DNA of 64,000 nucleotides from NCBI GenBank assembly GCA_964501365.1, contig CAZCST010000009.1:45977-109976 (forward strand), read 5' to 3'. Source of the stretch: an uncultured Phycisphaera sp. (GTDB lineage: Bacteria > Planctomycetota > Phycisphaerae > UBA1845). Under the pieces are notes generated by a model. That model had not been told where the DNA came from. It saw only the letters and a program-made list of their open reading frames with translations, and ran no database searches. Both the position numbers and the translations under genes were made by a program. Numbering within the stretch: the stretch's first letter is position 1; each line of letters starts with the position of its first letter. Shown piece after piece: positions 1,248-46,665 of this stretch.

Positions 1248-1262
1248 GGATCACCCCCAATC

Positions 1263-1925
1263 TTACTTGGTTGCTGCACGTTTTTTGGATTTTGCGGGGG
1301 CCGATTTCTTGGCGGTGGAAGCCTTCGCAGAACCCAGCGAACCGACCATCAGGCTGAAAGCCTTTCCGTCCGCCGCCGGAATATTGCGCTCAAGGAACGC
1401 CTGGACTTCGGCGCGAGTCGCCGTGGGATGCACCAGATCGGCCCCTCGCAGTGTGCCAAGAACTTGATTCCACACAGGAATCGCGTGCCCTCCGAGACTC
1501 CACAGTACAACGTAGGCAACCGCATATTCATCCATGCCCTTAAGCGTTTCAAGGTATTGCCGGGCCTCGCGCCGACCCAATGATTTGAGCCGTTCCAGGG
1601 AAACACTGTTCTCGCGATCGTAGATGGCATTCAAGGCGTCGAGCAGATTCTGGCTGCGGCGCAGCGATTCGGCGCCGGTGTCTCCCAGCAATTCAGCGAC
1701 CTCGTGAACGTTGGACACACGAATCTCGTTCCAATCGACCACGACGCTCTTGGCCTTGTTGACCTGTCGCTGCGCGCGCTCTGGGCCGTTGTCGCTGCCC
1801 AGGATACCCAGCGCCAGGCAATCAATCGGGTCACCCGGTTCGGGAATTTCTGCCGCGCTTATGCTGTGCTTCACCTTTGCGTATGCTTTCTTCAGGCGGT
1901 CGGCGTGCCGCGTACCGTCTTTCAT
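1263..1925 (-). CDS. HhH-GPD/endonuclease III-fold protein, catalytic residues apparently lost, with K/A-rich tail
   Basis: VDWNEIRVS...L motif and LETLKGMDEYAVAYVVLWSLGGHAIPV resemble the HhH-GPD hairpin region; ATGA overlap with rbfA stop. Confidence 0.6.
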   Translation of the reverse strand: MKDGTRHADRLKKAYAKVKHSISAAEIPEPGDPIDCLALGILGSDNGPERAQRQVNKAKSVVVDWNEIRVSNVHEVAELLGDTGAESLRRSQNLLDALNAIYDRENSVSLERLKSLGRREARQYLETLKGMDEYAVAYVVLWSLGGHAIPVWNQVLGTLRGADLVHPTATRAEVQAFLERNIPAADGKAFSLMVGSLGSAKASTAKKSAPAKSKKRAATK

Positions 1926-8171: not shown

Positions 8172-8207
8172 CCCCCTCTCCCCTTGGGAGAGGGATGGGG
8201 TGAGGGC
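8172..8207. repeat. CTCTCCC/GGGAGAG palindromic element upstream of nusA
   Basis: ccctctccc-ctt-gggagaggg-atggggtgagggc. Confidence 0.8.
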
Positions 8208-8242
8208 CAAACCTTCGGCCACGTGAACGCTCACCGGCATCC

Positions 8243-13845: not shown

Positions 13846-13878
13846 CGCTTTTGCCTTGTTGCCTCGTTGCCTGGCCGA

Positions 13879-25828: not shown

Positions 25829-26365
25829 ATGACCCCGTCGCCGCTGAATTTGAAGAAATGGATTGAGGAAAACCGCCACTTGCTCCGCCCGCCGGTGGGT
25901 AATCAATACCTGTATAGAGGCACAGATTTCTTCGTTATGGTCGTCGGCGGCCCCAACGCCCGCAACGACTTCCACGTCACCAAGTCTGAGGAATTCTTCT
26001 ATCAGGTCAAGGGCGACATCGTCGTCCGCACCCGCGAGAACGGAAAGATCATTGATCACAAGGTCCGCGAGGGCGACACCTTCTTCACCCCGCCCAACGT
26101 CCCACACTCGCCGCAGCGCCCGCCAGATACCATCGGCATCGTCGTCGAGCGCGTCCGCCCGCCGGACGAGATGGAACACCTTGTGTTTTACTGCGAGAAA
26201 TGCGGCGAGCTGGTGTGCGACATCGAGTTTGCCTGCAAGGATATTGTCGAGCATTTCCGCGAGACGATGGAGGCCTTCTGGAAGGACGACAAACGCCGGG
26301 CCTGCAAAAAGTGCGGCACCAAAGTCCCCAAACCCGGCCCGGTCTCGACGCTGCCGTCGTGTTAA
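25829..26365 (+). CDS. nbaC: 3-hydroxyanthranilate 3,4-dioxygenase
   Basis: LKKWIEENRHLLRPPVGN, VGGPNARNDFH, EEFFYQVKGD, VPHSPQRP, CEKC...CKKC rubredoxin-like site. Confidence 0.93.
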   Translation: MTPSPLNLKKWIEENRHLLRPPVGNQYLYRGTDFFVMVVGGPNARNDFHVTKSEEFFYQVKGDIVVRTRENGKIIDHKVREGDTFFTPPNVPHSPQRPPDTIGIVVERVRPPDEMEHLVFYCEKCGELVCDIEFACKDIVEHFRETMEAFWKDDKRRACKKCGTKVPKPGPVSTLPSC

Positions 26366-27453
26366 CGTATCGCATTCTCGATGCCAACTTCAACCGCTCG
26401 CGAGAGGCGTTGCGGGTGATGGAGGAGTTTGCGCGGTTTGTGCTCGACGATGCAAGCCTTTCGGCAGCTATCAAAGGAGTCCGGCATGATCTCGCCGCAG
26501 CCGTCAAGAAACTGGCCGACTTACCCGCAACATCGCCATATCGCCACATCGCCATATCATCACATAATCTGGTCGCTCACCGGGACATCCTGGGAGATGT
26601 CGGCACAACGATAACAACGCCAACCGAATCAAAGCGAGCGGGCGAAACCGAAGTCCTAACCGCCGCCTGCAAACGTCTCACGGAATCGCTGCGGTGCCTC
26701 GAGGAATACGGGAAGATCATCGACGGTGGGTTCGCCGCGCAAATCGAGCAACTTCGCTACCGCGCCTATGACCTTGAGCGGCGGTTGTTTGCGACGATCG
26801 GTGCGCGGCAGAAATTCGCGGGCGTTCGGCTGTACGTCCTGATGACCGAATCTCTATGCCAGTCCGATTGGTTTGAAACGGCTAGCGCCGCACTCGAAGG
26901 CGGAGCGGACTGCATCCAGCTCCGTGAAAAGAACCTGACAGACAGCGAATTGCTCGACCGCGCCCAACGCCTCGCCCAGCTTTGCCGCGACAAAGAAAAA
27001 ATCTTCATCGTCAACGACCGCCCCGACATCGCGGTCGCGGCCAGCGCCCACGGCGTTCACCTTGGCCAGGACGACCTACCTGTGGCGGCCGCTCGCCGAC
27101 TCCTGCCCGCGCACATGATCGTCGGCCTCAGCACCCACACCATCGAGCAGGTTGATGCCGCCATCGCTCAGGCCCCGGACTGCATCGCCGTCGGCCCCAT
27201 GTTCGCCTCCCCCACCAAGCCCCAGCCTCACATCGCTGGTCCTGCCCTGCTCGCCGAGGCCCGAAAACGCACCGCGCTTCCGCTGGTCGCCATCGGCGGC
27301 ATCGACGAAAGAAATATCTCCACCGTCCTAACCGTCGCTTCCGCGTGCATCTGCGTCTGTCGCGCGGTCATCTCCCAGTCCGACCCCGCCAATGCCGCTC
27401 GCCGCCTTCGCGATAAAATCGAAGCCAATCAAGCCAGGGCCTCCTCACTCTGA
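26359..27453 (+). CDS. thiE: thiamine-phosphate synthase with N-terminal ThiD2-type domain
   Basis: RILDANFNRSREALRVMEE N-domain; IQLREK, FIVNDRPD, GVHLGQDD, STH, PTKP, VAIGGI; start approximate. Confidence 0.92.
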   Translation: MLTYRILDANFNRSREALRVMEEFARFVLDDASLSAAIKGVRHDLAAAVKKLADLPATSPYRHIAISSHNLVAHRDILGDVGTTITTPTESKRAGETEVLTAACKRLTESLRCLEEYGKIIDGGFAAQIEQLRYRAYDLERRLFATIGARQKFAGVRLYVLMTESLCQSDWFETASAALEGGADCIQLREKNLTDSELLDRAQRLAQLCRDKEKIFIVNDRPDIAVAASAHGVHLGQDDLPVAAARRLLPAHMIVGLSTHTIEQVDAAIAQAPDCIAVGPMFASPTKPQPHIAGPALLAEARKRTALPLVAIGGIDERNISTVLTVASACICVCRAVISQSDPANAARRLRDKIEANQARASSL

Positions 27454-28020: not shown

Positions 28021-30090
28021 ATGGTACGTGCATCCGACATCCTTTCGGTAGTCGATCAACACTTGAACCCCACGCGCTTTCGCGAGCAGCATTGGGAGGG
28101 CTCGTTTGAGGAGTACCTCGATCTGGTCGCGGCCAATCCGCGCATCGCCCGCAATGCCTTCCAGCGCATCTACGACATGATCAAACATTTCGGCGCCGAG
28201 CGCTACAGTTCCATGCGCGAAGATATGATGCGCTACAAGTTTTTCACCGACCCCATCGACAACGGGGCCGACTCCATTTATGGCCTCGACCGCCCGCTCA
28301 TGAACCTGGTGGACTTCTTCAAGTCCGCAGCTCATCAGTATGGAACCGAGCGACGCATTCTCCTGCTGCATGGACCCGTCGGCTCCAGCAAGAGCACCAT
28401 CGCCCGCCTGCTCAAGAAGGGGTTGGAGTATTACTCCAAGCTCGATCAGGGCGCGCTCTATACGTTCTCATGGCACGTTCAGGACGAAAACGGCAAGACG
28501 ATCGTCTATCCGTGTCCGATGCACGAAGAGCCTTTGAAACTGATTCCGCCCGAAGCGCGCCGCTCCGTGCTTGGCAAGATCAACGAAGACCTCGATGAGG
28601 CCTCGCAAATCAGGGTCGAAGGTGCACTTGACCCGTTTTGCCGCCGCATGTTCGACGACCTGCTCATTCGCTACGACGGCGACTGGCGTAAGGTCATGGA
28701 CCACGTCCGCGTCCGCCGCCTGATCCTCAGCGAAAAGGATCGCGTCGGCATTGGCACGTTCCAGCCCAAGGACGAAAAGAATCAGGACTCGACCGAGCTC
28801 ACCGGCGACATCAACTATCGCAAGATCGCCGAGTACGGCACGGATTCCGACCCGCGCGCTTTCAACTTCGACGGCGAGCTCAATATTGCCAACCGCGGCA
28901 TGATCGAATTCATCGAAGTGCTCAAGCTCGACGTGGCCTTCCTTTATGATCTGCTCGGCGCGTCGCAGGAGCACGTGATCAAACCCAAAAAATTCGCCCA
29001 GACGCATATCGATGAGGTCATCATAGGTCACACGAACGAGCCGGAATACAAAAAGCTTCAGAGCAACGAACTCATGGAAGCCTTCCGCGACCGCACCATC
29101 AAGATCGACGTTCCCTACAACATCAAGCTCGACGACGAGATCAAGATTTACGAGCGCGACTTCAACAAGGAGCGCATCCGCGGTATTCACATTGCTCCGC
29201 ATACCATCGAAACGGCGGCCATGTGGGCGGTGATGACCCGCCTCGACGAGCCCAAGAAGGCCGGCCTGACGCTCATGCAAAAGCTCAAGCTGTACAACGG
29301 AAAGAGCATCCCCAACTTCACCGAGGACTCCGTTCGAGAGCTGCACGACGAGGCCCCGCGCGAAGGCATGCAGGGCATCAGCCCGCGATACATTCAGGAC
29401 AAGCTGTCCAACGCTCTCGTTTCCGATCAGGCCATTCAGGAAAAGTGCATCAATCCGTTCATGGTGATGAACGAACTTGAGTCAGGTCTTTCGCACCACA
29501 GCCTGATCACCGACGAGGAAACCAAGAGCACGTACCGCGAGCTCCTGGCCCTGGTCCGCGAGGAATACGAAGACACGCTCAAGTCCGAAGTGCAGCGGGC
29601 CATTTCCGCCGATGAAGACGCCATCACCCGGCTCGCGTCCAACTACATCGAAAACGTCCGCGCCTACACCCAGCACGAAAAGGTGCGCAACAAGTACACC
29701 GGCAAGGACGAGTCGCCCGACGAACGACTGATGCGCTCCATCGAGGAGAAGATTGATATCCCCGAGTCGCGCAAGGACGATTTCCGTCAGGAAATCATGA
29801 ACTACATCGGCGCGCTCTCCCTCGATGGCAAGCGCTTCGAGTACCACACCAACGCCCGGTTGCACAAGGCCCTCGAACTCAAGCTGTTCGAAGACCAGCG
29901 CGACACCATCAAGCTCAAGAACGTGGTCTCCGGCGTCGTCGATGACGAAACCCAGGCCAAGATCGACGTCGTCAAGCAGCGCCTCATCAAATACTTCGGC
30001 TACAACGAAACCAGCGCGACTGACGTCCTCAACTACGTCGCCAGCATCTTCGCAAGAGGTGACACGAAGGAGGAGACAAAGAAGAAGTAA
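28021..30090 (+). CDS. yeaG: PrkA/YeaG family serine protein kinase / AAA+ ATPase
   Basis: [53 protein letters not shown]; GGAGG before ATG 28021. Confidence 0.95.
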
Positions 30091-30158
30091 AAGATTGAAA
30101 TGAGAAGATAGAAGAGTGAAAAAGATTCTATCTTCTCTCTTCTAACTTCTCACTTTCC
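30091..30158. repeat. heptamer-repeat hairpin between yeaG and yeaH
   Basis: tgagaag-atagaag-agtgaaa arm vs ttctatc-ttctctc-ttctaac-ttctcac arm. Confidence 0.8.
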
Positions 30159-32968: not shown

Positions 32969-35218
32969 CTACTGATCCGGCTTCGGGGCCAATTGTTTCG
33001 AAAGGTCTGCCGGGGTTTGCACGGGAGTCTGGCAACGGAAATTTTCGCAGACATAGGCCGCCGCCTTGCCATTGATGCGCCCTTTGCCGGTGAGCAGGGG
33101 AATTCGCTCGTCGGTAACCTTGTCAGGCGAGAATACGATCACTTTGTTAGGTAGATACACACTCCAGACGGTGCGGAGCAAGGCGTGAGTTAGCTCGTAA
33201 CCGGCGTTCGACTTGGTTCGTGAGTCCTCACCCTCACCCCGGCCCTCTCCCTGGAAGGGAGAGGGGGTCATGTCGCCGACGATGGCGATCTCCTTGACCG
33301 TGTCATGGTAGAAATCGGACGCGCACATCAGGCGCTCGTATGCGCCGGGCGAATCGACGGCCTTCGGGCCAAAGGCGCGGAAAATCGTTTCCGCCTTTTC
33401 ACGGAAGTCCTTGCGTCCCAGCAGGATTGCCAGGCGTTGAAGGTTGAGCGCGTGGACGGAATTGCCTGAGGGAATCGCACTGTCCTGCGGCTGCTTGGAG
33501 CGCACCAGCAATTTTTCCCCGTCGCTGGCCGTGTAAAAGAACGCCCCGTCCCTGTCGTCGAAATAATACCGAATCGTGATGTCCGTGAGCCGCTCGGCCT
33601 CGTCGAGCCAACGGCGCTCGAAGGTGGCCTCGTAAAGATTCAGCAAGCCTTCGATCAGGAACGAATAGTCGCTGAGCGTGGCCGTCAGCCGAGCCTCTCC
33701 CGCACGACAGGTGCGCAGCAACCTTCCGTCTTTCTGCATTCTTGTGAGTATGAAATCGGCAGCCTGCGCAGCTGCTCTTGCGTATTTCGGCTCATCGAGA
33801 ACTGCCGCGCCCTTCGCGAGGCTCGCGATCATCAGCCCGTTCCAGTCGGTGAGAATCTTGTCATCGAGTGCCGGCGGGACGCGCTTGCCTCGCACTGCCC
33901 GCATTTTCTCGCGCCATGTCGACAGCTTTTTCGTGAACTCTTCAGGGTCGATTTTTTCAAGCTTGGCGAATACGTCGGGGGGCTTGGAGACGTGCAGGAT
34001 GTTCTTGGGGCCGGGCGGCGCGTGCCCCATGCGTTCGAACCAGTTGCCGCGATCAGTCACGTCGTAATACTTGCAAAACAGACGGCCGTCGTCCTCGCCG
34101 AGAATCGAAATCACTTCGGGCACGGTCCAGAGGTAGAATTTTCCTTCGAGCTTTTCGCTGTCCGCATCGCGGCTGGAGTAGAAGGCGCCCTCGGGCGAGC
34201 GGAGATCTTCGAGCACATAGTCAAAAATATCCCGCGCAACCGTTGCATATTCCGGCTTTTTCAGCGCGAGAAATCCATCGAGATAGATCGCGCTCACCAT
34301 GGCCTGGTCGTAGAGCATTTTCTCGAAGTGCGGGACGAGCCACTGCGTGTCCGTGCTGTAGCGGCAGATGCCACCGCCGATGTGATCGTAAATCCCGCCC
34401 CGGGCCATGTTATCGAGCGTCACGTCCACGGCCTGGGCCAGCTCGGCTTTTCCGGTTCGCCGATGCACGCGGAGCAAGAGGTCCATGGCCATGCTCGGCG
34501 GGAATTTGTTGCTGCCCCCGCCGCTCATGCCGCCCAAGGACGTGTCAAAGTAGCGGACGAGCGCCGCGGCCGTATCGTTGACCGCCTCCCGCGGAATGAC
34601 CCCCTCGGCGGCCGGCTTGCTTGCCGACCAGCGATTCAGGAAGTCCTGCGCTCCTGAGGCCCCCTTGAGAATTTCATCTCGCTGCTCCCGCCACATGCGG
34701 GCGATTTCCGTGAGCAGAGGAATAAAATGTTCTCTGGGAAAATACGTGCCTGCGTGAAAGGGAACACCCTGGGGCGTCAAGAAAACGCTCATCGGCCAGC
34801 CGCCCCCGCCAGTGGCTGCCTGCGTGTAGGCCATATACAGTTCGTCGATGTCGGGCCGCTCCTCGCGATCCACCTTGATGCTCACAAAGTTCGCGTTGAG
34901 CACGTCGGCCACGTCGTCCTGCTCGAAGCACTCGTGCTCCATGACGTGGCACCAGTGGCAGGCCGCATACCCGATGCTGAGGAAGATGGGCCTGTCCTCT
35001 GCCTTGGCTTTCGCGAATGCGTCTTCGCCCCATTCGTACCAGTCCACGGGATTGTGGGAATGTTGCAGCAGGTACGGACTTGTCGCCTTTGCGAGGCGAT
35101 TTGCCGGACGCTCTTTGGTTTGCATCTGATCCTTCATGCCTGAATCCTCCTGCGCCAGCGCCGGCAACGCGATCAAAACAACGAGAGTGAAATACAATCG
35201 TAAGCGCATGAAGTGCAT
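32969..35218 (-). CDS. YyaL/DUF255 thioredoxin-domain + (alpha/alpha)6 glycosidase-like protein, signal peptide present
   Basis: [73 protein letters not shown]. Confidence 0.93.
33231..33267. repeat. CTCTCCC/GGGAGAG element translated antisense in frame inside the YyaL-family gene
   Basis: ccctcaccccggccctctccc-tggaa-gggagagggg; read as [13 protein letters not shown]. Confidence 0.85.
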
Positions 35219-36032: not shown

Positions 36033-39017
36033 ATGGCCGCCACGCAAGTTGGGCTCAATCCTCCGCTCGATTCCCTCACGCCGGCCATGCGCCAATATGT
36101 GGAGCAAAAGAAGCGGGTTGGCGACGCAGTTCTGCTCTTTCGCATGGGGGACTTCTACGAAACGTTTTACGACGACGCGGTGCTGTGCTCGAGAGTGCTG
36201 GGGATTGCGCTCACGTCGCGGGACAAGAACTCCGCGAGCCCTGTGCCGCTTGCGGGGATTCCTTACCACGCGCTCGACGGCTACCTGAGCAAGCTGGTGG
36301 CGGCGGGGTACAAGGTCGCGATTTCCGAACAAATGGAGGACCCAAAGCAAGCCAAGGGCGTCGTGCGCCGCGATGTGGTCCGCATCGTCACGCCGGGCAC
36401 GCTTACGGAGGAAACGCTGCTGGCCGACCGCGACGACAACCTGCTGGCTGCGCTGTGTCTTCGCGGCGAGGAAGTGGGATTGGCGATTGTCGAGCTGGCG
36501 TGCGGGCGGCTTGAGACGATTGAATTAGAAAGACAACCAGGCAACGAGGCAAGAAGGCAACAAGGCGAGAGGCCAGCCCTCACCCCTGGCCCCTCTCCCG
36601 AGGGGAGAGGGGGAAAGGCGGACCCCCCTGAGTCCCCCCTTATGAAGGGGGGAGGCGGGGTCGCGCGAGCAGCGGAGGCAGCCAAGGCGGAAGCCTCCGG
36701 CGGCTCACTCCTGCTGGACACGCTGGTGCGGCTGCGTCCGGCGGAGTTGCTGATCGCGGAGGAGGCCGGAGCTGAGACGGAGCGGATTGCACAAGAGCTG
36801 CGAACCCTCTGCGGCACAGCGATCACGCATAGGCCTGTTCACGAGTTTTCGGAGTATCAAGCGCAGCGGACACTGCTGGAACATTTCGGCGTGGCGACGC
36901 TTGCGGGATTTGGATTTGATGAGCCGGACAATTCCCTTGTTGCGGCCGGTGGGATCATTCAATACCTGCAGGAAACGCAGAAGACTGCGCTCGGGCATGT
37001 GTCGGCCATCCGTCGCCGCAACGCGGCCCAAAGCGTGCAAATCGATCACAGCAGTTGGCGGTCGCTGGAGATCGACCGGACGCTGCGCGGGGGCCAGCGC
37101 GAGGGATCGCTGCTCCAGGCCATCGACCGCACCGTCAACGCGGCCGGCGCTCGAATGCTGCGTCATTGGTTGGCGGCCCCACTGACAGATGGGAACGCGA
37201 TACGCGAGCGGCAACAGGCCGTTGGCTTTCTCGTTGAGGAAGGCGCACTGCGCGAGCGAATCCGGCAGCGACTGAAGCACCTGGCCGATGTGGAGCGTAT
37301 CGCGGGGCGCGTCGCGCTGGGGCGGGCCTCACCTCGCGACCTTGAATCGCTGGGGCGGACGTTGGCGGCGTTGCCGGGATTGCTCGATTGCGAGCGGGCC
37401 AATGAAATTCTATTTCTCCATCAGATTAAAAAGACGCTCGGCGACAAGTGTGGTGAGCCGGCCAACGGCCCGCTTGCCGGCCCCTGGGATTTGGATTCGC
37501 CCTCACCCCGGCCCTCTCCCGAGGGGAGAGGGGGAAAAGCGGACCCCCCTGCGCCCCTCCTTGGCAAGGGGGGAGGCGGAGTCGCGGAACTTGCTTCGCT
37601 GCTTGGCTCGGCCATCCGCGAAAATCCTGCCGGCAACCTGCGCGAGGGAGGCTTCATCGCCGACGGGTATCATGCAGAACTCGACCGGCTGCGGGCCATC
37701 TCGCACGACGGACAGACGTGGCTGGCGGAGTATCAACGCAGGGAGATCGAACGCACGGGGATCGCCCACCTCAAGGCGGGATACAACCGCGTGTTCGGCT
37801 ACTACCTGGAAGTGCCACACTCTGGCACTGCGAAGGTTCCGGTGGATTACATTCGCAAACAGACGGTGAAGAACGCGGAACGCTATATCACCGAAACACT
37901 GAAGAACCACGAGCACGAAGTTCTCACCGCACAGGACCGGGCGAATCAACTGGAATTCGAGCTTTTCGAGGAGCTGCGAAAGAAGGTGGCGGCGTGGCTT
38001 GTTCCGCTGGGTCGAGTCGCGGAAGCGATCGCGCGGCTGGACTGTGCGGCCGCTCTGGCCGAGTTCGCGGAGGAGCGGCGCTGCGTCCGGCCGGAAATCG
38101 TGGACGACGGACGGCTGGAAATCATCGACGGGCGGCACCCCGTGCTCGATCAGGCCATTGGAGATGCGTTCGTGCCCAACGACACATGCATGATCGATGA
38201 TGCGCGCGTCTTTGTGATCACGGGTCCGAACATGGCGGGTAAGAGCACCTACATCCGGCAGGTCGCGTTGCTGACTATTTTGGCCCAAATCGGGGCGTTC
38301 GTGCCGGCACGGCGAATGACGTTTTCGCTGGTGGATCGAATCTTCGCGCGAGTCGGATCGTCGGACGAAATCATGCGGGGACAATCGACGTTTATGGTCG
38401 AAATGGTGGAAGCGGCGAACATTTTGCACAACGCCACGCGGAATTCGCTGGTAATCCTCGATGAACTGGGCCGCGGGACGAGCACGTTTGACGGGCTGTC
38501 GCTGGCCTGGGCGGTGACGGAGCATCTGGCGGAAAAGACGGCGTGTCGGACCCTGATCGCGACGCATTATCACGAGTTGATTGAACTGGGCGCGATGCTG
38601 AAGGGCGTTAGAAACTTCAATGTCGCGGTACGAGAAAATCGCGCCAAGACTGAAGATAGAAGAGTGAAGAGTGAAGGCGAATCGACCACTGCCGAGTCGT
38701 CCATCGCATTCCTGCATAAGATTGTTGAGGGTGGGGCGAACCAGAGTTTTGGCATCCACGTTGCGCGGCTGGCCGGAGTACCACGCAGTGTCGTCGATCG
38801 AAGCCGGGAAGTATTGGACCAGCTTCAGCGGCGGCTGGCGGGGACTGCGCATTCGCCCGCGGTGAGCGCGGTAAAGTCGAAGGACGTGGACCAGTTGGCC
38901 TTGTTCCGGGAGCCAGGGGAGGAATTGATGGAGGCGTTAAGGGAGTTGGATCCCGATCGCCTCACGCCTCTGGAGGCGCTCACGCGACTCAAAGATTTGA
39001 AAGATCGGTTTGGGTAG
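36033..39017 (+). CDS. mutS: DNA mismatch repair protein MutS with three repeat-derived insertions
   Basis: TPAMRQY, FRMGDFYETF, LAGIPYH, ITGPNMAGKSTYIRQ, GQSTFMVEM, LDELGRGTSTFDG, ATHYHEL, SFGIHVARLAGVP. Confidence 0.98.
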   Translation: MAATQVGLNPPLDSLTPAMRQYVEQKKRVGDAVLLFRMGDFYETFYDDAVLCSRVLGIALTSRDKNSASPVPLAGIPYHALDGYLSKLVAAGYKVAISEQMEDPKQAKGVVRRDVVRIVTPGTLTEETLLADRDDNLLAALCLRGEEVGLAIVELACGRLETIELERQPGNEARRQQGERPALTPGPSPEGRGGKADPPESPLMKGGGGVARAAEAAKAEASGGSLLLDTLVRLRPAELLIAEEAGAETERIAQELRTLCGTAITHRPVHEFSEYQAQRTLLEHFGVATLAGFGFDEPDNSLVAAGGIIQYLQETQKTALGHVSAIRRRNAAQSVQIDHSSWRSLEIDRTLRGGQREGSLLQAIDRTVNAAGARMLRHWLAAPLTDGNAIRERQQAVGFLVEEGALRERIRQRLKHLADVERIAGRVALGRASPRDLESLGRTLAALPGLLDCERANEILFLHQIKKTLGDKCGEPANGPLAGPWDLDSPSPRPSPEGRGGKADPPAPLLGKGGGGVAELASLLGSAIRENPAGNLREGGFIADGYHAELDRLRAISHDGQTWLAEYQRREIERTGIAHLKAGYNRVFGYYLEVPHSGTAKVPVDYIRKQTVKNAERYITETLKNHEHEVLTAQDRANQLEFELFEELRKKVAAWLVPLGRVAEAIARLDCAAALAEFAEERRCVRPEIVDDGRLEIIDGRHPVLDQAIGDAFVPNDTCMIDDARVFVITGPNMAGKSTYIRQVALLTILAQIGAFVPARRMTFSLVDRIFARVGSSDEIMRGQSTFMVEMVEAANILHNATRNSLVILDELGRGTSTFDGLSLAWAVTEHLAEKTACRTLIATHYHELIELGAMLKGVRNFNVAVRENRAKTEDRRVKSEGESTTAESSIAFLHKIVEGGANQSFGIHVARLAGVPRSVVDRSREVLDQLQRRLAGTAHSPAVSAVKSKDVDQLALFREPGEELMEALRELDPDRLTPLEALTRLKDLKDRFG
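36576..36666 (+). repeat. double-hairpin palindromic element, copy 1, in frame in mutS
   Basis: ccctctccc-ga-ggggagaggg plus ccccctt/aaggggg hairpin; preceded by octamer array 36534-36572. Confidence 0.88.
37499..37586 (+). repeat. double-hairpin palindromic element, copy 2, in frame in mutS
   Basis: near-identical to 36576-36666 (tctcccgaggggagagggggaaa.gcggacccccctg...aaggggggaggcgg.gtcgcg). Confidence 0.88.
38647..38676 (+). repeat. heptamer array in frame in MutS ATPase domain
   Basis: tgaagat-agaagag-tgaagag-tgaag; 17-nt identity with 30104-30120 and 16-nt identity with 41888-41903. Confidence 0.8.
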
Positions 39018-39036
39018 TTTTCGTTGGCCGATTTGT

Positions 39037-39130
39037 TGCACCCCTTCAGGGTGCAGGTTCTGGTGTATCCGTATTCCGGGGGTATCGCTTCGCTCAACCC
39101 CCGGCTACTTTATTAGACCCCTTCGGGGTC
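39037..39130. repeat. composite GTAG-type REP downstream of mutS
   Basis: tgcacccc/gggtgca hairpin, ccgggggt/acccccgg-ctac hairpin, gacccc-ttcg-gggtc hairpin; same layout as 35831-35927. Confidence 0.8.
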
Positions 39131-39152
39131 AAGAGATTCCATACGAATGGAG

Positions 39153-39240
39153 TTTCAAAGATACAAGGCTCAAGAGTTTAAGAGATCAAGGGTTCAAGAG
39201 TCTAAGAGTTCGAGAGTTCAAGCGTCCAAGGGTTTGGGGG
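39153..39240. repeat. degenerate octamer tandem array (TTCAAGAG consensus, ~10 units) upstream of cmk
   Basis: ctcaagag-tttaagag-atcaaggg-ttcaagag-tctaagag-ttcgagag-ttcaagcg-tccaaggg. Confidence 0.85.
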
Positions 39241-39280
39241 TTCAGGTGACCTGTGGCGGAAAAATCCCTATCATCATTCC

Positions 39281-39937
39281 ATGATCGTGACGATCGACGG
39301 GCCTGCCGGGTCTGGAAAATCGACTGCCGCACGCAAGCTGGCCGCCCGGCTGCAAATCCCCTACCTCGATACTGGGGCCATGTATCGGGCGATCGCCTAC
39401 GAATGTCTGCGGCGCGGCGTGGACCTTGGCAACGCAGGGACTGTCGAGGCGGTGGCGAAGGGGCTCAAGCTGGACATTGATTGCGGGCCCACGCACACCC
39501 GCATCCGCGTGAACGGAAGCGACGTGAGCGAAGCCATTCGCACGATGGAAGTCAGCAGCGCGACTTCACGTATCGCCAAGATGCCCGGCGTTCGCAAACT
39601 CCTCGTCGAGCAGCAGCGGCAGATCGGCGCCAAACTCCAATCCTTTGTTACAGAGGGTCGCGATCAAGGCAGCGTGGTCTTCCCGCAAGCGGACGTGAAG
39701 TTTGTCCTGGAAGCCTCGCTCGAACGGCGGGCCAGACGGCGACTGGAAGAAATGATCGGCGACGGAGAGGCCGTCACCCTGAACGCAGTCCAGGACAACC
39801 TTGCACAGCGCGACGCCGTGGACGCCCGCCAATGGGAGCCTCTGCTTTCGGATCGGGCGGCGATTATTCTCGATACGAGCAGCCTGACGATCCACGAGGT
39901 CGTGGACCGGCTGGTTGAGCACGTCCGAGAGAAGTGA
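39281..39937 (+). CDS. cmk: cytidylate kinase
   Basis: IVTIDGPAGSGKST, YLDTGAMYRA, EGRDQGSVVFP. Confidence 0.95.
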   Translation: MIVTIDGPAGSGKSTAARKLAARLQIPYLDTGAMYRAIAYECLRRGVDLGNAGTVEAVAKGLKLDIDCGPTHTRIRVNGSDVSEAIRTMEVSSATSRIAKMPGVRKLLVEQQRQIGAKLQSFVTEGRDQGSVVFPQADVKFVLEASLERRARRRLEEMIGDGEAVTLNAVQDNLAQRDAVDARQWEPLLSDRAAIILDTSSLTIHEVVDRLVEHVREK

Positions 39938-40027
39938 CGCAACCATTACGCTGGAAAACGCCATTTCGGACTGCAATCATGCGGTGGCAAATGGGTACAA
40001 ATTCCTGGCCGTATGCGTAATCTGCAT

Positions 40028-40055
40028 TTGACGATTGATTCGTAAAGACTAGATT
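40028..40055 (+). promoter_or_regulatory. possible sigma70 promoter of the secretion locus
   Basis: TTGACG - 16 nt - TAGATT. Confidence 0.35.
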
Positions 40056-40107
40056 GAAATCGAGTCGGGTTCCGAGTGTCCGGCCGAGGCAATTTCCGGG
40101 TTCAGCG

Positions 40108-41313
40108 ATGCCCAGTTTCAGCTATAAGGCAGTGGGTCAGGGAGGCAAGCACGTCACCGGCGTGCTGACGGCCGAAAACTATTCGGTCGCGCTGCGCCAA
40201 CTGGATGAGCTATCGCTTTTTCCGGTCCACGTCCGCGAAGGCAACGAACAGGGAACTGTGCCCTTTAGCGGTGGCCGACGACGCAAGGTCAAGAGTTCGC
40301 ACCTCACGACGTTTTACAGCCAGCTGGCCGACCTGCTGAAGGCGGGCGTGCCCATGATGCGCTCGCTGGACGTGCTGGGGAAGCAGTCGTCCACCGGCTC
40401 GCTCATGATGACGGTGCGCGAGCTTCGCGAAGATATTTCCGGCGGTATGGCGCTCGGCGAGGCGATGGCCAAATATCCACATGCGTTTTCACCGTTGCAC
40501 GCCTCCATGGTTCGTGCCGGCGAGCAAGGCGGATTTCTGGAGGATGTACTCACGCGCATCGCGATCTTCTCGGAACGACAGGACGAGCTTCGCAACAAGC
40601 TGCTGGGCGCGATGATTTATCCGATCATCCTGGTGGTGATCGCCACACTGATCCTGGTCATGCTCATGGTGGTTGTGGTTCCCAAGCTCGGAGACCACCT
40701 GCGGCCTGAAACCTTCAACTTCATGACCCACATTGTGTTTGGCGTGAGCCATGCACTGCGAGATCATTACATCGGGATTCTGATCGGCGTTTTCGTCGTG
40801 GTGGCGGCGGTGAGCTCATGGCTCAAGACCGCGGCGGGCAAGCGCATGTGGGACATGTACAAACTCCGGGGTCCGGTCCTGGGCAAGGTCTTCACCATGG
40901 TGGCGATCTGCCGCTTCTGCCGAATTCTCGGAACCATGCTGCACAACGGCGTGCCCATTTTGCAGGCGCTGCGCATTTCCAAGGACTCGGCGGGAAGTGA
41001 GATTCTGGCAGCCACGATTGAAAAGTCGGCAGAGAGCGTCAGGAAAGGGGCCGCGCTTTCGACGCCCCTGGGCGAGTCGGGACTGTTTCCCCAAACGATT
41101 CTCGACATGATCGCCGTCGCCGAAGAGAGCAACAATCTCGAAACGGTGCTGGTGCAGATTGCCGAGACGAACGAAATGCGCACGGCCCGGTCCATCGACC
41201 TGGCGGTGAGAATTCTGGAGCCGGTGTTGCTGTTTTTCATGGCGGGGATTGTGTTCTGCATCGCCGTGGCCTTGCTGCTGCCCATCCTTACAATGGGCAC
41301 AGGGGTACAATAG
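40108..41313 (+). CDS. gspF: type II secretion inner-membrane platform protein GspF/PilC
   Basis: QLADLLKAGVP, MVRAGEQGGFLEDVL.RIA, MIYP, MLHNGVPILQAL, MIAVAEES, RILEP. Confidence 0.95.
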   Translation: MPSFSYKAVGQGGKHVTGVLTAENYSVALRQLDELSLFPVHVREGNEQGTVPFSGGRRRKVKSSHLTTFYSQLADLLKAGVPMMRSLDVLGKQSSTGSLMMTVRELREDISGGMALGEAMAKYPHAFSPLHASMVRAGEQGGFLEDVLTRIAIFSERQDELRNKLLGAMIYPIILVVIATLILVMLMVVVVPKLGDHLRPETFNFMTHIVFGVSHALRDHYIGILIGVFVVVAAVSSWLKTAAGKRMWDMYKLRGPVLGKVFTMVAICRFCRILGTMLHNGVPILQALRISKDSAGSEILAATIEKSAESVRKGAALSTPLGESGLFPQTILDMIAVAEESNNLETVLVQIAETNEMRTARSIDLAVRILEPVLLFFMAGIVFCIAVALLLPILTMGTGVQ

Positions 41314-41315
41314 GA

Positions 41316-41385
41316 TTGAGGAATGGCGGATGCGGAATGATGAATGAATTTTCGATTTGAGAATATCGATTGTCGATTTGAAACG
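41316..41385. repeat. two heptamer arrays between gspF and gspG
   Basis: gaggaat-ggcggat-gcggaat-gatgaat then tttcgat..tatcgat-tgtcgat. Confidence 0.65.
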
Positions 41386-41422
41386 GCGAAACAAACACAG
41401 GATTGAACGCGGGAGAAATGCG

Positions 41423-41887
41423 ATGCAAAGGAAAATGATTCGAAGGCGATCGGGTTTTACATTGATCGAAGTGTTGCTGGTGGCAGGCATTCTGGCCGTA
41501 CTGGCGGCCTTTGCGATCCCCAGCCTGCTTGGAACTGCCAAGAAAACGCAAATCAAGCTGGCAATGGCGGCGATCGGACGCAACGGACCCATCGCAAAGG
41601 GCCTAACGCAATATAAATTCGCCATGGGTAAATATCCGGACACCGACGAGGGCCTGGCGGCGCTTTACAAGCCCAAGGAGTATCACAAGGAAGATGAGCG
41701 CTACGATGGTCCGTACATGGAGGGCACGCTTGAAGAGCTTCGGGACCCCTGGGGTCAACCCTTTGAGTACCGTTCACCGGGCGAAATGAACGAAAGCGAA
41801 TATGACCTTTGGAGCCGCGGCCCGGATCAAAAGGACGACGGCGGCAAGGAAGGCAGTGACGACGTGAAGAACTGGCGGGAGAAATAG
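41423..41887 (+). CDS. gspG: major pseudopilin GspG
   Basis: RRRSG|FTLIEVLLV, GKYP..DEGLAAL, DPWGQPFEYRSPGE..YDLWSRGPD..DD. Confidence 0.95.
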   Translation: MQRKMIRRRSGFTLIEVLLVAGILAVLAAFAIPSLLGTAKKTQIKLAMAAIGRNGPIAKGLTQYKFAMGKYPDTDEGLAALYKPKEYHKEDERYDGPYMEGTLEELRDPWGQPFEYRSPGEMNESEYDLWSRGPDQKDDGGKEGSDDVKNWREK

Positions 41888-41970
41888 AGACTGAAGATAG
41901 AAGTGAGAAGTGAGAAGATAGAAAGAGAGTTCTAAAGTCCGGTTTCAGTTTCCCTTTTCAATCTTCTCAC
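41888..41970. repeat. heptamer-repeat palindrome between gspG and next pseudopilin
   Basis: agaagtg-agaagtg-agaagat-agaaaga arm; tcttctcac right arm. Confidence 0.75.
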
Positions 41971-41997
41971 ATGGGGCTTCGATGGCGCGGGGTGGTC

Positions 41998-42831
41998 ATG
42001 AACAGGAAAACCGTACAGCCCGCTCGCGCATATACGCTGATCGAAATTGTGCTGGTGATCGGACTGCTCCTGCTCATCAGCGCGATCGCATTGCCCAACT
42101 TTTTCAATCAATTTGAGCGCGAACAACTTCCCACGTCGGCCGAGCAGTTGCGGGCACTCATTATTCTGACCCGGGCCAACGCCGCGCTGGACTCCAAGCG
42201 CTATCGCATCCGGTTCCCGCGCAAGGAGGAACTCGACGACCTGGGCACACGTCAGCAGCCCATGGTCGAACGTGAAGACGACCCGATGGAGCGCCCGGAT
42301 GAGTTTCTGCCCGTACGAGCCAGCTGGGCCGTCGGTCAGACGTTGCTGAGTAATGTTCGATGCGCCGAAATCCGCCTCGGGCGACCCTTGATTGTCGACC
42401 TGAAACTGCGGCGAGAATCGGCCACCACGCAACTCGACGAGGCCCTTGAATCGCGCAACCAAAGCGAAAAGTTCGAGCGCGAGCTCCCTCCGATTTACAT
42501 CGAACCCGACGGCACGAGCGACTGGGCGACACTGGTCCTGACTCAGGCAGCGGAGGAAGTGCCGATCAACGAACTGTGGAACCAAAAGGGTATTGATGTC
42601 ATCGTCGATGGGCTCAGCGGGCTGGTCTGGCTCCAGCGCCCCTTCTACGACGAAGAACTTGACTTGTTTGAGGAGAAGAACTGGCCGGCGGTACTCCGCA
42701 AGGATTTCCTTACGCCGAGGAAGCTCACCGAACGCGACATTCTCGAACTGCGCCAGGTTCCTGCGGAAATGCAAGGCAGGAAGACCACGGCCGCCAAGGA
42801 ACTGGAGCAGGAGGAAGGCGCAAAGCCATGA
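41998..42831 (+). CDS. minor pseudopilin, GspH-like position
   Basis: PARA|YTLIEIVLVIGLLLLISAIALP type III signal; position after gspG. Confidence 0.85.
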   Translation: MNRKTVQPARAYTLIEIVLVIGLLLLISAIALPNFFNQFEREQLPTSAEQLRALIILTRANAALDSKRYRIRFPRKEELDDLGTRQQPMVEREDDPMERPDEFLPVRASWAVGQTLLSNVRCAEIRLGRPLIVDLKLRRESATTQLDEALESRNQSEKFERELPPIYIEPDGTSDWATLVLTQAAEEVPINELWNQKGIDVIVDGLSGLVWLQRPFYDEELDLFEEKNWPAVLRKDFLTPRKLTERDILELRQVPAEMQGRKTTAAKELEQEEGAKP

Positions 42832-43631
42832 CTCGAAGTTCAAAGTTCAAAGTTCAAAGTTCAAAAAAGGCACGGGGGGTGTGTTTGCTCCGCGGTGCTT
42901 TTGAATTTCGCACTTTGAACTTTGACGCTCAGGTCCGCAGGGCGTACGTCATGCTGGAGACCGTGATCGCCACCGGCCTGCTCATCATTGGACTGGGCGT
43001 CATCGGCGCGCAGCTTCAGGATTCCAACAAGGCGGTTCATACCATGCGGCTCAAGACGCAGGCTGTCATGCTCGCCGAAACGCAACTCGCCATGATGGAC
43101 CTGGGGCTGGTCGAGCTCGACTCGGTGGACGAGGTTCAGGATGGCGACTTCGGCTCGCGCTATCCGGACTGGGGCTGGCGGCTGATCACTGAGCCGACGG
43201 CCATCGAGGGCTTGTTCCGCATCACCATCCAGGTGCAATACATCTATCGCAACGAACCATATCGCGAAGACTCCTTTGACCATGAGCACGCAGACACTCT
43301 GTTCAGCGCGGTGGCATTTCGTCAGCCTCCCAAGCCGCTTGATCTGGCGACGGATTTTGGATTAAACGAGGAAGAACTGACGGACTTCACCGACAAAGTC
43401 GGAGAGGCCCAGATTCCCTGCTTTGAAGGCGGCGTGTTCGATCCCACTTGCCTTGCCGGAATCGATATTGAGCAGTTGTTCAAAACCCTGCCCGCACTGC
43501 AAAAGCTGGGAATCAACCTCGGCGATCTCGCCTCCATCATCCCTCCGGACTTGTTGAAACAACTCGAGGACAGCGGCCTGATGGACAAGGCGCAGGGGGC
43601 CGCCGACGGACAGACGGAGCCGGAGCAATGA
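42828..43631 (+). CDS. minor pseudopilin, GspI-like, with repeat-derived leader
   Basis: VRRA|YVMLETVIATGLLIIGLGVI; AVMLAETQLA, GDFG.RYPDWGWRL; ATGA overlap with upstream stop. Confidence 0.85.
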   Translation: MTRSSKFKVQSSKKARGVCLLRGAFEFRTLNFDAQVRRAYVMLETVIATGLLIIGLGVIGAQLQDSNKAVHTMRLKTQAVMLAETQLAMMDLGLVELDSVDEVQDGDFGSRYPDWGWRLITEPTAIEGLFRITIQVQYIYRNEPYREDSFDHEHADTLFSAVAFRQPPKPLDLATDFGLNEEELTDFTDKVGEAQIPCFEGGVFDPTCLAGIDIEQLFKTLPALQKLGINLGDLASIIPPDLLKQLEDSGLMDKAQGAADGQTEPEQ

Positions 43632-44617
43632 TGGCCGCGAAACGCCACATCATGACTCGCCGACGGGGGCTTTCGTTGCTGGAAGTCGTGCTTTCGCTGT
43701 CCATCCTCGTGCTGCTGTCGGCGATGACATACTGGTTCTATTCGTCGGCAATTCGCACGCGCGAGCGGGATGTCCAACTGGCCGACAAGATCCGCCTCGC
43801 ACGCGTGCTTCTCGACCGCATGGCCCACGAAATCCGTCAGGCCACCATTCATACCGCTGATGGAGGCGTGGGAATCGACGGCGACAAGGAGAGCATTCGC
43901 ATATCAAGCCTTCGCGTGCCGGGGCGCGAAATCGCGGATACGCGGTTTGAACGCACCGAGGAACCGTCGGCCGAGTATGACCTGGTGACCGTGGAATATC
44001 ACATTGCCCGACACCCGGACGTGCTTGACCCGGAGCAGGGGTATGAATATCCGCTGGGCCTTGCGCGCGTCGAACAGCGTATTCCCCGGCCGGAACAACC
44101 CGGCGTGCCGCCCGCCGACGAACTCATTCAACAGGACGAAACGGGGAAAATCACTCTGAACCAGGCTGCCATGGATTCGATGCTTGGCGGATCCACAACC
44201 GACAAGAAGGAAAACCTGGAGACCGAGGTCAACTGGCAGGAATTGTATTCGCAGGAAATCCGCTATCTGCGATTCTGCTACTATGACGGCAAATCGTGGT
44301 GGGATGACTGGCACATCAACGGCGAAAACCCGCTGCCGCAACTGATCCTGGCCACGATCGGATTCGAGGCTCATCCGCCCTGCGGCGAGGAATTCGGGCA
44401 GGACGAATACAACATCGAGTTTTGCACCTGCCTCAACCGCGATCCGCCCGATTGTCGCCCGCTGCACTCTGACCAGATATCCATGACGATCCGCGTCACC
44501 CACGCCGATCCGCTCTTCCGCTCGCGCGTCTCGCGCGAGGGGCAAAACATGGCCGAACAGGCGGCTTCGGGCAAGGACAAAGAATCCGACAAGAGCGGCA
44601 CCGGGAGCGGAAAATGA
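43628..44617 (+). CDS. minor pseudopilin, GspJ-like
   Basis: RRRG|LSLLEVVLSLSILVLL; C-terminal YLRFCYYDGKSWWDDW..LPQ typical of GspJ. Confidence 0.85.
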   Translation: MMAAKRHIMTRRRGLSLLEVVLSLSILVLLSAMTYWFYSSAIRTRERDVQLADKIRLARVLLDRMAHEIRQATIHTADGGVGIDGDKESIRISSLRVPGREIADTRFERTEEPSAEYDLVTVEYHIARHPDVLDPEQGYEYPLGLARVEQRIPRPEQPGVPPADELIQQDETGKITLNQAAMDSMLGGSTTDKKENLETEVNWQELYSQEIRYLRFCYYDGKSWWDDWHINGENPLPQLILATIGFEAHPPCGEEFGQDEYNIEFCTCLNRDPPDCRPLHSDQISMTIRVTHADPLFRSRVSREGQNMAEQAASGKDKESDKSGTGSGK

Positions 44618-46665
44618 GAGAAGTTCAAGAACTGCGACAAGACCAGCGCCGCGGCGTCATTCTGCCGGTGGTGCTGTTTGTGCTGGTGCTGATCGGGCTG
44701 CTGGCGGCGATGTATTCATTCCGCGTGAACTCCGATCTTTCCGCCACGCAGGCCGTGGCGATGCGGATGCAGACGCGACTGGCCGCCGAAGCCGGTATTG
44801 AATATGTCCGCATGGTGCTGCGAACCTCGCGGTTCGACCGGAATGTCTGGTACAACAATCCCGACATTTTCAACCGCATCATTGTCACCGCCCACGGCCA
44901 CGATGCGAAGACCGCCGGCACCAATCAGGAATTTGATGACAACAGCGTGTTCCGCTTCAGCATCGTGGCCGACGATCCCACCGACGACAAGGATTACGTC
45001 CGCTTCGGCATCACCGACGAGGCATCGAAGCTGAATCTGAACGCGGCCACCGAAGCCCAGCTGCTCACGCTGGTGACGGCGGCGCTGGGCGAGAATACGG
45101 AAGTCGAGCCCCAGCAAATCGTGGATGCGATTCTCGACTGGCGGGACGATGACACGCTACCACGAGGGGAGGCCGGAGACACCGAACGCACCTATTACAG
45201 TGCGTTACCCAAGCCATACCGGGTGAAGAACGGTCCCTTCGATACCGTGGAGGAGCTGCTCCTGGTGAAGGGCGTCACGCCGGCGATCTTGTATGGAGAG
45301 GATTTTGATCGCAATGGCCTGCTTACTCAAAACGAAAAGGACGGCGATCGATCCTTCCCGGACGACAATCAGGACGACGTACTCAATCGCGGCCTGTATG
45401 CGTACCTCACTGTATTGTCAAAGGAAAACAACGTCGCAAATGACAACCGTCCGCGCATCTATCTCGCCGGCGAAGAAGCAGCTACGCGAACTGGATTGAC
45501 GGCCATCTTTCCCGACGAGCCAAACGTTGTGGATTACATCTTACAAAACGCAAAAGCGCCATCGGGCCAGGGCGGCGACGGCGGCACAGGCCACGGCGGA
45601 AAACAAGGCCAGCAAGGTCAAGGCAGCCAAGGCGGACAGCAGGATCAGCCTGGCCATGGAGGCCAACCTGGCGGGCAACAGGGCGATGTGGGATCGCAAA
45701 CCGGACAGCAAGGTAACCCGGGAGGCCTGCAGGGCGGCACACAACCAACTGGAGGTCAAGGCGGCGCATCCGGTGGGAGCGGAGCAGGCAGCGGCTCGAA
45801 GCCGGGAAAACCAAAGGGCACAAACAAAGACAAGCAACCGCCGACAGGCGGTACGACCCCGCCGCAGGGTCAGGGCGGCTCACGCGGGCAGGCCGGAACC
45901 AAAAACCCACGAGGTTCCTCGCCTCCGCAAGGCGGTTTGCAAGGCGGAGAGCCGCAACAAGGGGGACAAGGACAAGAATCGGGACAGCCCACAGATGCAG
46001 GCCAGCCACAAGGTCAGCAGCAAGGATCACAGCCACAGCAACAGGGAGCAGGCGATGAGAATCAAGGCCCCAAGACCTCTCCCGACGGGGACGACGGCGG
46101 AGGAGCCGGTGACGGCGGCAGCGGGCAACCATCCGGCAATCCTCCGATCACCAGCCCGGCCTCGCTGATGCTTCCCCGAAAGGATGCGCAGGGAAATCCG
46201 ACGGCCAGCGCACTAACCCTTGAGCATTTGGCGGTCCTCATGGATAAGACCACCATGCACAAGCCCGAGGAGCGCACGATACCGGGCCTGATCAATGTCA
46301 ATACGGCCCCACCGGCGGTTCTCGCGTGCCTTGAAGGCATCGGGGAAGAGCACATTCAGAAAATCATGGCCAAGCGCGACACGCTTGACGCTGCAACGCT
46401 GTCGACCACGGCCTGGCTGGTGACCGAGAACGTGATGGACCTGGTGACCTATGAAAAATTGGCGCCCTCCATTACGGCGAGGGGGCAACAGTTTACAATT
46501 GAGTCGGTGGGGTACGCCGACTATATGGGGATGGTGACCCGGCTGCAGGTGGTGGTGGATATGAACGGACCGATCGCCCAGACCGTTTACTACCGTGATA
46601 TCAGCAATCTGGGCGGAACCTACCCCATTCGGGAATCGGACAAGGAAAAAATTCGTGGCCACTAA
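44614..46665 (+). CDS. gspK: GspK-like pseudopilin with large Gly/Gln-rich insertion
   Basis: QRRG|VILPVVL (no E5), DEASKLNLN, DAILDWRD, NGPFDTVEELLLVKGV, INVNTAP. Confidence 0.9.
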   Translation: MREVQELRQDQRRGVILPVVLFVLVLIGLLAAMYSFRVNSDLSATQAVAMRMQTRLAAEAGIEYVRMVLRTSRFDRNVWYNNPDIFNRIIVTAHGHDAKTAGTNQEFDDNSVFRFSIVADDPTDDKDYVRFGITDEASKLNLNAATEAQLLTLVTAALGENTEVEPQQIVDAILDWRDDDTLPRGEAGDTERTYYSALPKPYRVKNGPFDTVEELLLVKGVTPAILYGEDFDRNGLLTQNEKDGDRSFPDDNQDDVLNRGLYAYLTVLSKENNVANDNRPRIYLAGEEAATRTGLTAIFPDEPNVVDYILQNAKAPSGQGGDGGTGHGGKQGQQGQGSQGGQQDQPGHGGQPGGQQGDVGSQTGQQGNPGGLQGGTQPTGGQGGASGGSGAGSGSKPGKPKGTNKDKQPPTGGTTPPQGQGGSRGQAGTKNPRGSSPPQGGLQGGEPQQGGQGQESGQPTDAGQPQGQQQGSQPQQQGAGDENQGPKTSPDGDDGGGAGDGGSGQPSGNPPITSPASLMLPRKDAQGNPTASALTLEHLAVLMDKTTMHKPEERTIPGLINVNTAPPAVLACLEGIGEEHIQKIMAKRDTLDAATLSTTAWLVTENVMDLVTYEKLAPSITARGQQFTIESVGYADYMGMVTRLQVVVDMNGPIAQTVYYRDISNLGGTYPIRESDKEKIRGH

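Follow-up and report, generated by a model that had tools for sequence, protein, structure and literature searches.

The closest described relative of the repeats treated here is a G/C-rich intrastrand-triplex motif, TM_ECO, formerly named BoxC and PIT (Bachellier et al. 1990s; Hoyne et al. 2000; Holder et al. 2015, PMC4666352). Its pattern, 5'-CCCTCNCCC-N3-6-GGGNGAGGG-N3-GGGNGAGGG, has been reported from 262 proteobacterial genomes, and G/C-rich variants are abundant in cyanobacteria. The triplex forms solely on an isolated single strand, the motif shows neither promoter nor terminator activity and no link to transposons, phages or plasmids, and it marks loci with unusual variability between strains; in E. 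coli K-12 its copies are intergenic without exception (PMC4666352). Here we analysed a stretch of 64,000 nt (the window) from an uncultured Phycisphaera sp. (contig CAZCST010000009.1), in which the mutS gene (36033-39017, plus strand) carries three in-frame inserts made of this motif, of a second hairpin and of arrays of 7-8-nt units. We read these inserts, with a probability of roughly two in three, as in-frame insertions, specific to this lineage, of small repeats that are dispersed and otherwise intergenic.

The window copies match the TM_ECO pattern and differ from those of K-12 by 0-1 stem positions. As in E. coli, they are multi-copy and dispersed, often stand beside a second G/C-block element, occupy hypervariable loci and have no known transposase association. 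They differ in location, since the K-12 copies are intergenic whereas three of the four window copies lie in frame, two of them in one essential-type repair gene. The host differs as well: reports of the strict pattern concern proteobacteria and those of the G/C-rich variants cyanobacteria, and the present host is a planctomycete. Here, moreover, a specific second hairpin and 7-8-nt arrays are attached to the motif. Intergenic location is a reported property of the E. coli copies and lies outside the sequence definition of the motif.

A likeness to Rickettsia palindromic elements (RPEs), proposed in an earlier note on this DNA, holds in effect only, as in-frame repeat insertion compatible with the protein fold. 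In the account given in PMC10969869 (after Ogata et al. 2000), RPEs are repeats of ~100-150 nt lying in frame, with open frames, in unrelated housekeeping genes, where they contribute peptide segments that both fold and function tolerate. On the same account they are AT-rich palindromes of another phylum, in contrast to the G/C-rich triplex and hairpin blocks found here, and the window unit is modular, its motif, hairpin and arrays also occurring separately. REP/REPIN elements and MITEs are, like the window elements, short, G/C-rich, hairpin-forming dispersed repeats, and in-frame gene fusions are known for MITEs and for some REP-like elements (PMC3184786, PMC10969869). The REP/REPIN tag GTAG or CGTC is absent from the hairpin head of the window elements, which begin with GCCCTCACCCC. 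We know of no RAYT or transposase for the BoxC/triplex family. Cyanobacterial STRR heptamers with nested small dispersed repeats, reportedly the subject of work by Mazel et al. in 1990 and Elhai et al. in 2008, resemble the present repeats by description only, as intergenic tandem heptamers with very small hairpin-type repeats, nested and sometimes located in genes; the unit sequences are not alike.

Three in-frame inserts in mutS

The host gene is a single open reading frame (ORF) of 994 aa that encodes a MutS1 protein. All five Pfam domains (MutS_I-V) are matched, E. coli MutS aligns with an E-value of about 1e-186, and the nearest MutS relatives, from Planctomycetota/Phycisphaerae metagenome-assembled genomes, are at most 86% identical. 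The Phe-X-Glu mismatch motif, Walker A and B and the C-terminal clamp-binding QLxLF are all present, as seen from GDFYE at residue 39, GPNMAGKST at 731, DELGRGTS at 810, THYHEL at 844 and QLALF at 954. The earlier note had proposed that three repeat-derived inserts interrupt the gene with its frame preserved and its catalytic motifs intact, and both points were borne out, the former by the ORF, by Tandem Repeats Finder (TRF), by a direct repeat and by alignments. DNA was compared with four relatives, namely L001 (the closest, syntenic, 75% nucleotide identity), L002, L041 and L042. Between the window and L001 the ratio of nonsynonymous to synonymous substitution rates (dN/dS) of mutS is 0.077 over 913 codons, inserts left out. 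MutS outside the inserts is under strong purifying selection, and a dN/dS of 0.08 points to long-term function of the gene. The impairment of MutS that had been considered possible left no sign, as judged by this ratio and by the intact motifs, and the idea that a weakened MutS favours repeat spread is speculation. The L001 mutS carries an in-frame TAG at codon 244 (L001 5977-5979), away from the repeats, where the window has TCC (Ser301), and because of this stop it is called as two genes; the TAG could mark a real pseudogene (a mutator lineage) or a sequencing error.

Insert 1 (36526-36693, plus strand) comprises 168 nt, or 56 codons, and takes the place of loop residues 159-167 in the connector domain of E. 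coli MutS. Its limits come from DNA alignment with L001 and L002, from which the insert is absent and which provide empty sites. The existence of the insert was thus confirmed, with exact limits that replace the ~36531-36705 given before. Neither a target duplication nor microhomology was found at these junctions against the L001 and L002 empty sites, nor were the terminal inverted repeats and target-site duplication that are hallmarks of MITEs, with the ~25% divergence limiting the power of this comparison. The insert consists, in order, of an octamer array, a triplex motif, a second hairpin (hairpin 2) and an Ala/Glu-rich tail. The array, of AGGCAACN-type units, occupies the 5' side at 36530-36570 on the plus strand (TRF: period 8, 36530-36566, 4.6 copies). 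It is followed by the motif, carried by the minus strand at 36576-36611 (CCCTCTCCC-CTC-GGGAGAGGGG-CCA-GGGGTGAGGG) and read as LTPGPSPEGRG; positions 36577-36611 fit the TM_ECO pattern once 5 nt are allowed in loop 2 or the stems are set to 10 nt. Hairpin 2, at 36618-36666 on the plus strand (GGACCCCCCT..TCCCCCCTT-ATG-AAGGGGGGA-GGCGGGGTC), is arranged as C-block, C-block, G-block and G-block and was recovered in both DNA and RNA folds. As single-stranded DNA, this copy of motif and hairpin is predicted by Watson-Crick folding to form two hairpins (-31.3 kcal/mol, z = -3.2), and the RNA fold agrees.

No relative compared has insert 1; of 127 homologs, 123 have a loop of 18 aa at site 1, against 75 aa in the window. 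An ancient conserved loop, the alternative named at the outset, is therefore rejected for insert 1. A single other MutS among the 127 (P0212) has an insertion at this site, with a spacer of 44 aa instead of 18, and it is not of the triplex-motif type.

Insert 2 (37446-37586, plus strand) lies in core domain III, where by alignment it replaces the loop formed by E. coli residues 379-388. Its part 37499-37586 is a composite of motif and hairpin related to that of insert 1. The motif copy, on the minus strand at 37499-37533 (CCCTCTCCC-CTC-GGGAGAGGG-CCG-GGGTGAGGG-C), is of TM_ECO type B and is read as PSPRPSPEGRG. The pattern match itself, 37500-37532, has the exact type B layout CCCTCTCCC-CTC-GGGAGAGGG-CCG-GGGTGAGGG, and loop 1 is the sole difference from E. 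coli K-12 TM no. 1. Positions 36591-36665 and 37512-37586 form a 75-nt direct repeat with 89% identity; when the leader GCCCTCACCCC is included, the shared unit reaches 88-90 nt with three indel positions (36576-36665 and 37499-37586). The two copies of a ~90-bp palindrome that had been described here are thus real as a shared unit, but 'palindrome' suits the first copy better than the second, because hairpin 2 of the latter (37541-37583, plus strand, 89% identical to copy 1) has decayed. Copy 2 keeps hairpin 1, and its hairpin 2 folds no better than shuffled sequences (z = -0.3 for DNA; RNA agrees). The spacer at site 2 spans 98 aa in the window against a median of 51, and the closest clade alone is expanded (67-89 aa).

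Insert 3 (38640-38700, plus strand) falls in the ATPase domain, at the EH-G-D turn of E. coli MutS (~748-751). It contains an AAGAGTG-type heptamer array at 38646-38677 (TRF: 38646-38676, period 7, 4.4 copies, 83% matches), and folding revealed no palindromic character in it. The spacer at site 3 is 24 aa long against a median of 6, with 18-58 aa in the closest clade.

Sites 2 and 3 carry different DNA in each relative, and their expansion is limited to the immediate clade. At site 2, L001 has AGATCGA heptamers together with ATCGCCAA octamers, L002 and L041 have AAATCACC-type octamers, and L042 is non-repetitive; at site 3, L001 has TCGAAAA heptamers, whereas L002 and L041 have long composite repeats. 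By these comparisons both sites are older hot spots with turnover of their content, and ancient conserved loops are rejected there too at the sequence level. The triplex-motif peptide was found in none of ~240 retrieved MutS homologs. Since the site of insert 1 is in addition empty in relatives, insert 1 and both composites are specific to the lineage of the window.

The proposal that the inserts add loops to the enzyme was supported, as all three map to loops of E. coli MutS that vary in length among homologs. In an AlphaFold2 model (mean predicted local distance difference test, pLDDT, of 67), they fall between secondary-structure elements, with pLDDT below 50 at residues 167-223 (insert 1), 472-515 (insert 2) and 846-904 (the region of insert 3). 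Their peptides, rich in Pro, Gly, Ser, Arg and Glu, are predicted to be disordered. We argue that MutS copes with about 115 added residues across three loops. Comparison with Rfam at gathering and permissive thresholds gave chance-level matches only, so a known RNA family, intron or ribozyme was rejected as the source of the inserts, and their removal as inteins or introns was set aside without any supporting feature.

Independent assemblies of the same organism cover part of the gene. A Logan contig (L043, SRR13076500) is 100% identical to window positions 37506-42863 and a second one (SRR13076528) to 39078-41103. L043 begins within the motif of insert 2 and stops in a heptamer array, so short-read assemblies break at such repeats; between these ends it covers insert 3, the arrays of the spacers and the larger part of insert 2 together with its 3' junction. 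The suggested check of the assembly therefore came out positive for inserts 2 (from 37506) and 3, while insert 1 and the 5' junction of insert 2 are unconfirmed by it. A homolog search yielded no N-terminal MutS fragment of the same organism that would confirm insert 1, and an exact look-up of this MutS sequence returned no record.

The triplex motif and the arrays beyond mutS

The palindrome had been taken for an analogous family unrelated to RPEs. It is not a new family, as its core is the published motif (PMC4666352): hairpin 1 with its CCCTCACCCC leader, read on the opposite strand, corresponds in sequence to BoxC/PIT/TM_ECO, and the C-rich strand is the coding strand. The TM_ECO pattern is exact at 8174-8206, 33231-33265 and 37500-37532. 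Chance is excluded, since the pattern gave four matches in the window and a hairpin-1 21-mer gave six, against none in 100 shuffles in both cases. The four motif copies in 64 kb are found on both strands, with conserved stems and most differences in the loops. As in E. coli, the motif loci vary among relatives, other DNA being present at the MutS and DsbH-like sites in L001, L002, L041 and L042.

A scan of one genome per species with hairpin 1 and the start of hairpin 2 returned 36 loci from Chloroflexota, Cyanobacteria, Armatimonadota, Spirochaetota, Gemmatimonadota and Proteobacteria. All of them share a block made of CCCTCACCCC, 2-3 nt, CCCTCTCCC, a loop and GGGAGAGGG. Hairpin 2 was not found elsewhere in the window. 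Its block order (C6, C6, G6, G-rich) follows the same logic as the motif, and this layout is common to cyanobacterial and spirochaete copies. When both window copies of the ~85-nt composite are aligned with those of one spirochaete locus and of three cyanobacterial ABC-ATPase genes that are orthologs, 46 columns are invariant and the mean column identity is 73%.

Three of the four window motifs are coding, two of them in mutS. The other one (33231-33265, minus strand), a pattern match, lies in frame in a DsbH/YyaL-like gene that neighbours mutS (ORF 32969-35218, minus strand; Pfam Thioredox_DsbH) and is identical to E. coli K-12 TM no. 12 at 34 of 35 positions; the L001 ortholog has a different insert, of 49 aa, at the same site. 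The remaining pattern match (8174-8206, plus strand) is located upstream of nusA, 24 nt from the probable start (ATG 8150, minus strand), and the NusA_N domain begins at residue 34 of the long nusA ORF. If an upstream ATG at 8240 were used, this motif would be in frame within a 30-codon N-terminal extension.

Coding copies also occur in other organisms. When the 36 loci of other phyla are taken together with one metagenome locus, at least 12 have the motif in frame with Pfam domains flanking or surrounding it. The hosts include HsdM, CarB, MoeA, a MiaB-like enzyme, ABC ATPases and Eco57I/MmeI-type methylases, as well as GH2, a PMT-type glycosyltransferase and a STAND NTPase. MutS is thus no special target, given the in-frame repeats in the DsbH-like gene, in a ThiD2-ThiE gene of the window (see below) and in these proteins of other phyla. 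Five of the six frames of the motif are open and encode peptides rich in Pro, Ser, Leu, Gly, Arg and Glu, and a single frame contains a stop (GGG-TGA-GGG), which explains why the motif is tolerated in genes. We found no description of BoxC/triplex motifs translated in frame in the literature searched.

Two of these hosts can be described further. The HsdM gene of a type I restriction-modification system (L040, metagenome contig OMKS01041481.1, ORF 4-1788, minus strand) has three motif-derived in-frame inserts, with the peptides PSPGLRPPSPNGRWAGGEG, PSPGLRPPSPSGRGAGGEG and GPHPACGHPLPGGEG...GRGDGGEG. In Spirulina, Tildeniella and Leptolyngbya, orthologous double ABC-ATPases (SPLPGGEGTGGIPPAPLRKGGG) carry the motif-plus-hairpin composite (L010 6306-6365, L019 516-575 and L030 2324-2386) in frame within one and the same linker; because three genera share it there, coding copies can be long inherited. 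In IMG/VR contigs (L045-L164), the TM_ECO pattern was present at 120 or more viral or proviral loci, and of the 147 copies among the matches listed, 33 have a frame that stays open for 100 codons or more in each direction, as judged by the open frame alone. For E. coli, no phage association was reported (PMC4666352); proviruses may include host flanks.

The arrays have dispersed counterparts of their own. The octamers of insert 1 match positions 13851-13874 on the other strand at 23 of 24 nucleotides, within a dispersed copy (13848-13876, minus strand) that adjoins the start of an acyltransferase gene, with a bit score above those of all 100 shuffles. Insert 3 has an exact 17-mer in common with heptamer arrays in the PrkA-DUF444 spacer (30079-30155; match at 30104-30120) and an exact 16-mer with the heptamer array after the T2SS-G gene (41888-41928; match at 41888-41903); both are intergenic and exceed all 100 shuffles. 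On this evidence, the arrays of inserts 1 and 3 are copies of dispersed intergenic arrays. Local slippage was considered as their origin and rejected, as the matches to intergenic arrays lie above all shuffles.

Arrays of related purine-rich units of 7-8 nt fill several spacers of the window, at 30079-30155, 39150-39244 (mutS-cmk), 41888-41928 and 42832-42925 (a divergent pair). The mutS-cmk spacer is 263 nt long in the window and about 45 nt in L001. A ThiD2-ThiE fusion (ORF 26200-27453) also has an in-frame octamer array of ACATCGCC/ATATCGCC units (26526-26560), located inside its ThiD2 domain, which spans 137 aa against a profile of 123 positions; the same unit type fills MutS site 2 in L001. 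The tail of insert 1 also matches a 16-mer at 45621, within a low-complexity, G/Q-rich linker in a GspK-like protein, and this match was rejected as coincidental. This type II secretion protein (ORF 44614-46665) has a Gly/Gln/Pro-rich low-complexity region of ~230 aa (~45586-46294) with CAAGGN-like short repeats.

Origin of the inserts

Taken together, these observations are most consistent with dispersed repeats that would have been copied into three loops of mutS, in the form of the BoxC/triplex-motif composite and of 7-8-nt arrays. Their arrival may have involved non-classical copying, either templated insertion at non-B DNA in association with repair or replication, or the action of a trans-acting enzyme. 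Such a templated process or enzyme is favoured over classical transposition because no target duplication, terminal inverted repeats or transposase link was seen. Selection would then purge the copies that break the frame or hit structured parts, so that insertions in multiples of three in permissive loops remain. The inserts would persist in mutS because they are stop-free, with lengths that are multiples of three, and because the loops are disordered and tolerant of length. They would accordingly be tolerated passengers rather than functional additions, and the repeats are most likely selfish or neutral, kept only in permissive disordered loops.

Several points weigh against this reading. 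We infer, rather than observe, both the mechanism of arrival and the neutrality of the inserts, and the insert peptides are predicted translations. Insert 1 and the 5' junction of insert 2 each come from a single assembly. Our view of the genome covers 64 kb, which places copy number, master copies and any associated enzyme outside its reach. The window-specific spacer GGAAARGCGGACCCCCC had no further copy in the genome and metagenome collections scanned, the metagenome scan giving two unrelated loci only. Lastly, two of the four window motifs lie 921 nt apart in one gene, a spacing that may point to copying within the gene, or to another local process, rather than to independent arrivals.

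This last point leads to the alternative that survives best, a single arrival followed by intragenic copying, in which the second composite would be generated by ectopic gene conversion or template switching between loops. Each of the two mutS copies is by far the best match of the other, with 89% identity across 75-90 nt that take in hairpin 2 and the spacer. This makes it plausible that the second was made from the first, and neither hairpin 2 nor the spacer has another occurrence in the window or in the scanned collections. However, the flanks beyond the composite share nothing, and the 11% divergence with indels indicates that any such copying was not recent. The triplex-motif part, moreover, belongs to a dispersed family, and the rest of the genome, which lies outside the window, may well contain other copies. 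We consider this account possible but rather unlikely.

A functional role of the inserts appears improbable. They could provide a mutator switch in mutS, through unstable DNA or frameshifting arrays, or form loops that modulate the interaction with MutL or the clamp. Triplex-motif loci are hypervariable in E. coli (PMC4666352) and here, the gain or loss of one 7- or 8-nt unit would shift the frame, and the mutS of the closest relative has a premature TAG. Yet this stop is not at a repeat, and the low dN/dS given above speaks for long-term function. Slippage is expected to be rare in such imperfect arrays, of which that in insert 3 has no more than two adjacent units that are identical, and insert 3 is identical in two independent assemblies of the organism. 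The presence of the same repeats in unrelated housekeeping genes fits indiscriminate insertion.

An assembly artefact, in which repeat-induced misjoins would have placed intergenic repeats into mutS, is very improbable even though contigs assembled from short reads of this organism end precisely at repeats and part of the inserted DNA has no independent support, given that all inserts are in frame and stop-free with flanking codons that resume the MutS alignment exactly, that L043 agrees with the window over insert 3 and over most of insert 2 with its 3' junction, and that independently assembled relatives also hold inserts at sites 2 and 3.

Coding copies as a handle on motif spread

The motif family is already known, as is the in-frame insertion of small repeats, from RPEs and some MITEs. 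The occurrence of BoxC/triplex motifs in coding frame is a new aspect of a motif that has been known for about 30 years and described as intergenic. In coding sequence such motifs make proteins vary in length, like the RPEs of Rickettsia. For annotators and assemblers, Pro/Gly-rich 'PSPxGRG/GEG' loops and contig breaks are to be expected at motif sites.

A wider proposal, that the ~85-nt composite is a discrete and still mobile element of at least three phyla (Planctomycetota, Cyanobacteria, Spirochaetota), possibly phage-borne, which writes Pro/Gly-rich loops into proteins, is one that we put forward tentatively and regard as doubtful. If true, it would constitute a pan-bacterial counterpart of RPEs, and clean coding junctions such as those of insert 1 could expose the copying mechanism. 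Returning to the insertion of dispersed repeats that we favour, conserved genes give exact empty-site comparisons, which are rare for intergenic copies, and the insertion mechanism thereby becomes testable. The coding copies of the motif are thus chiefly useful as a handle on how it spreads.

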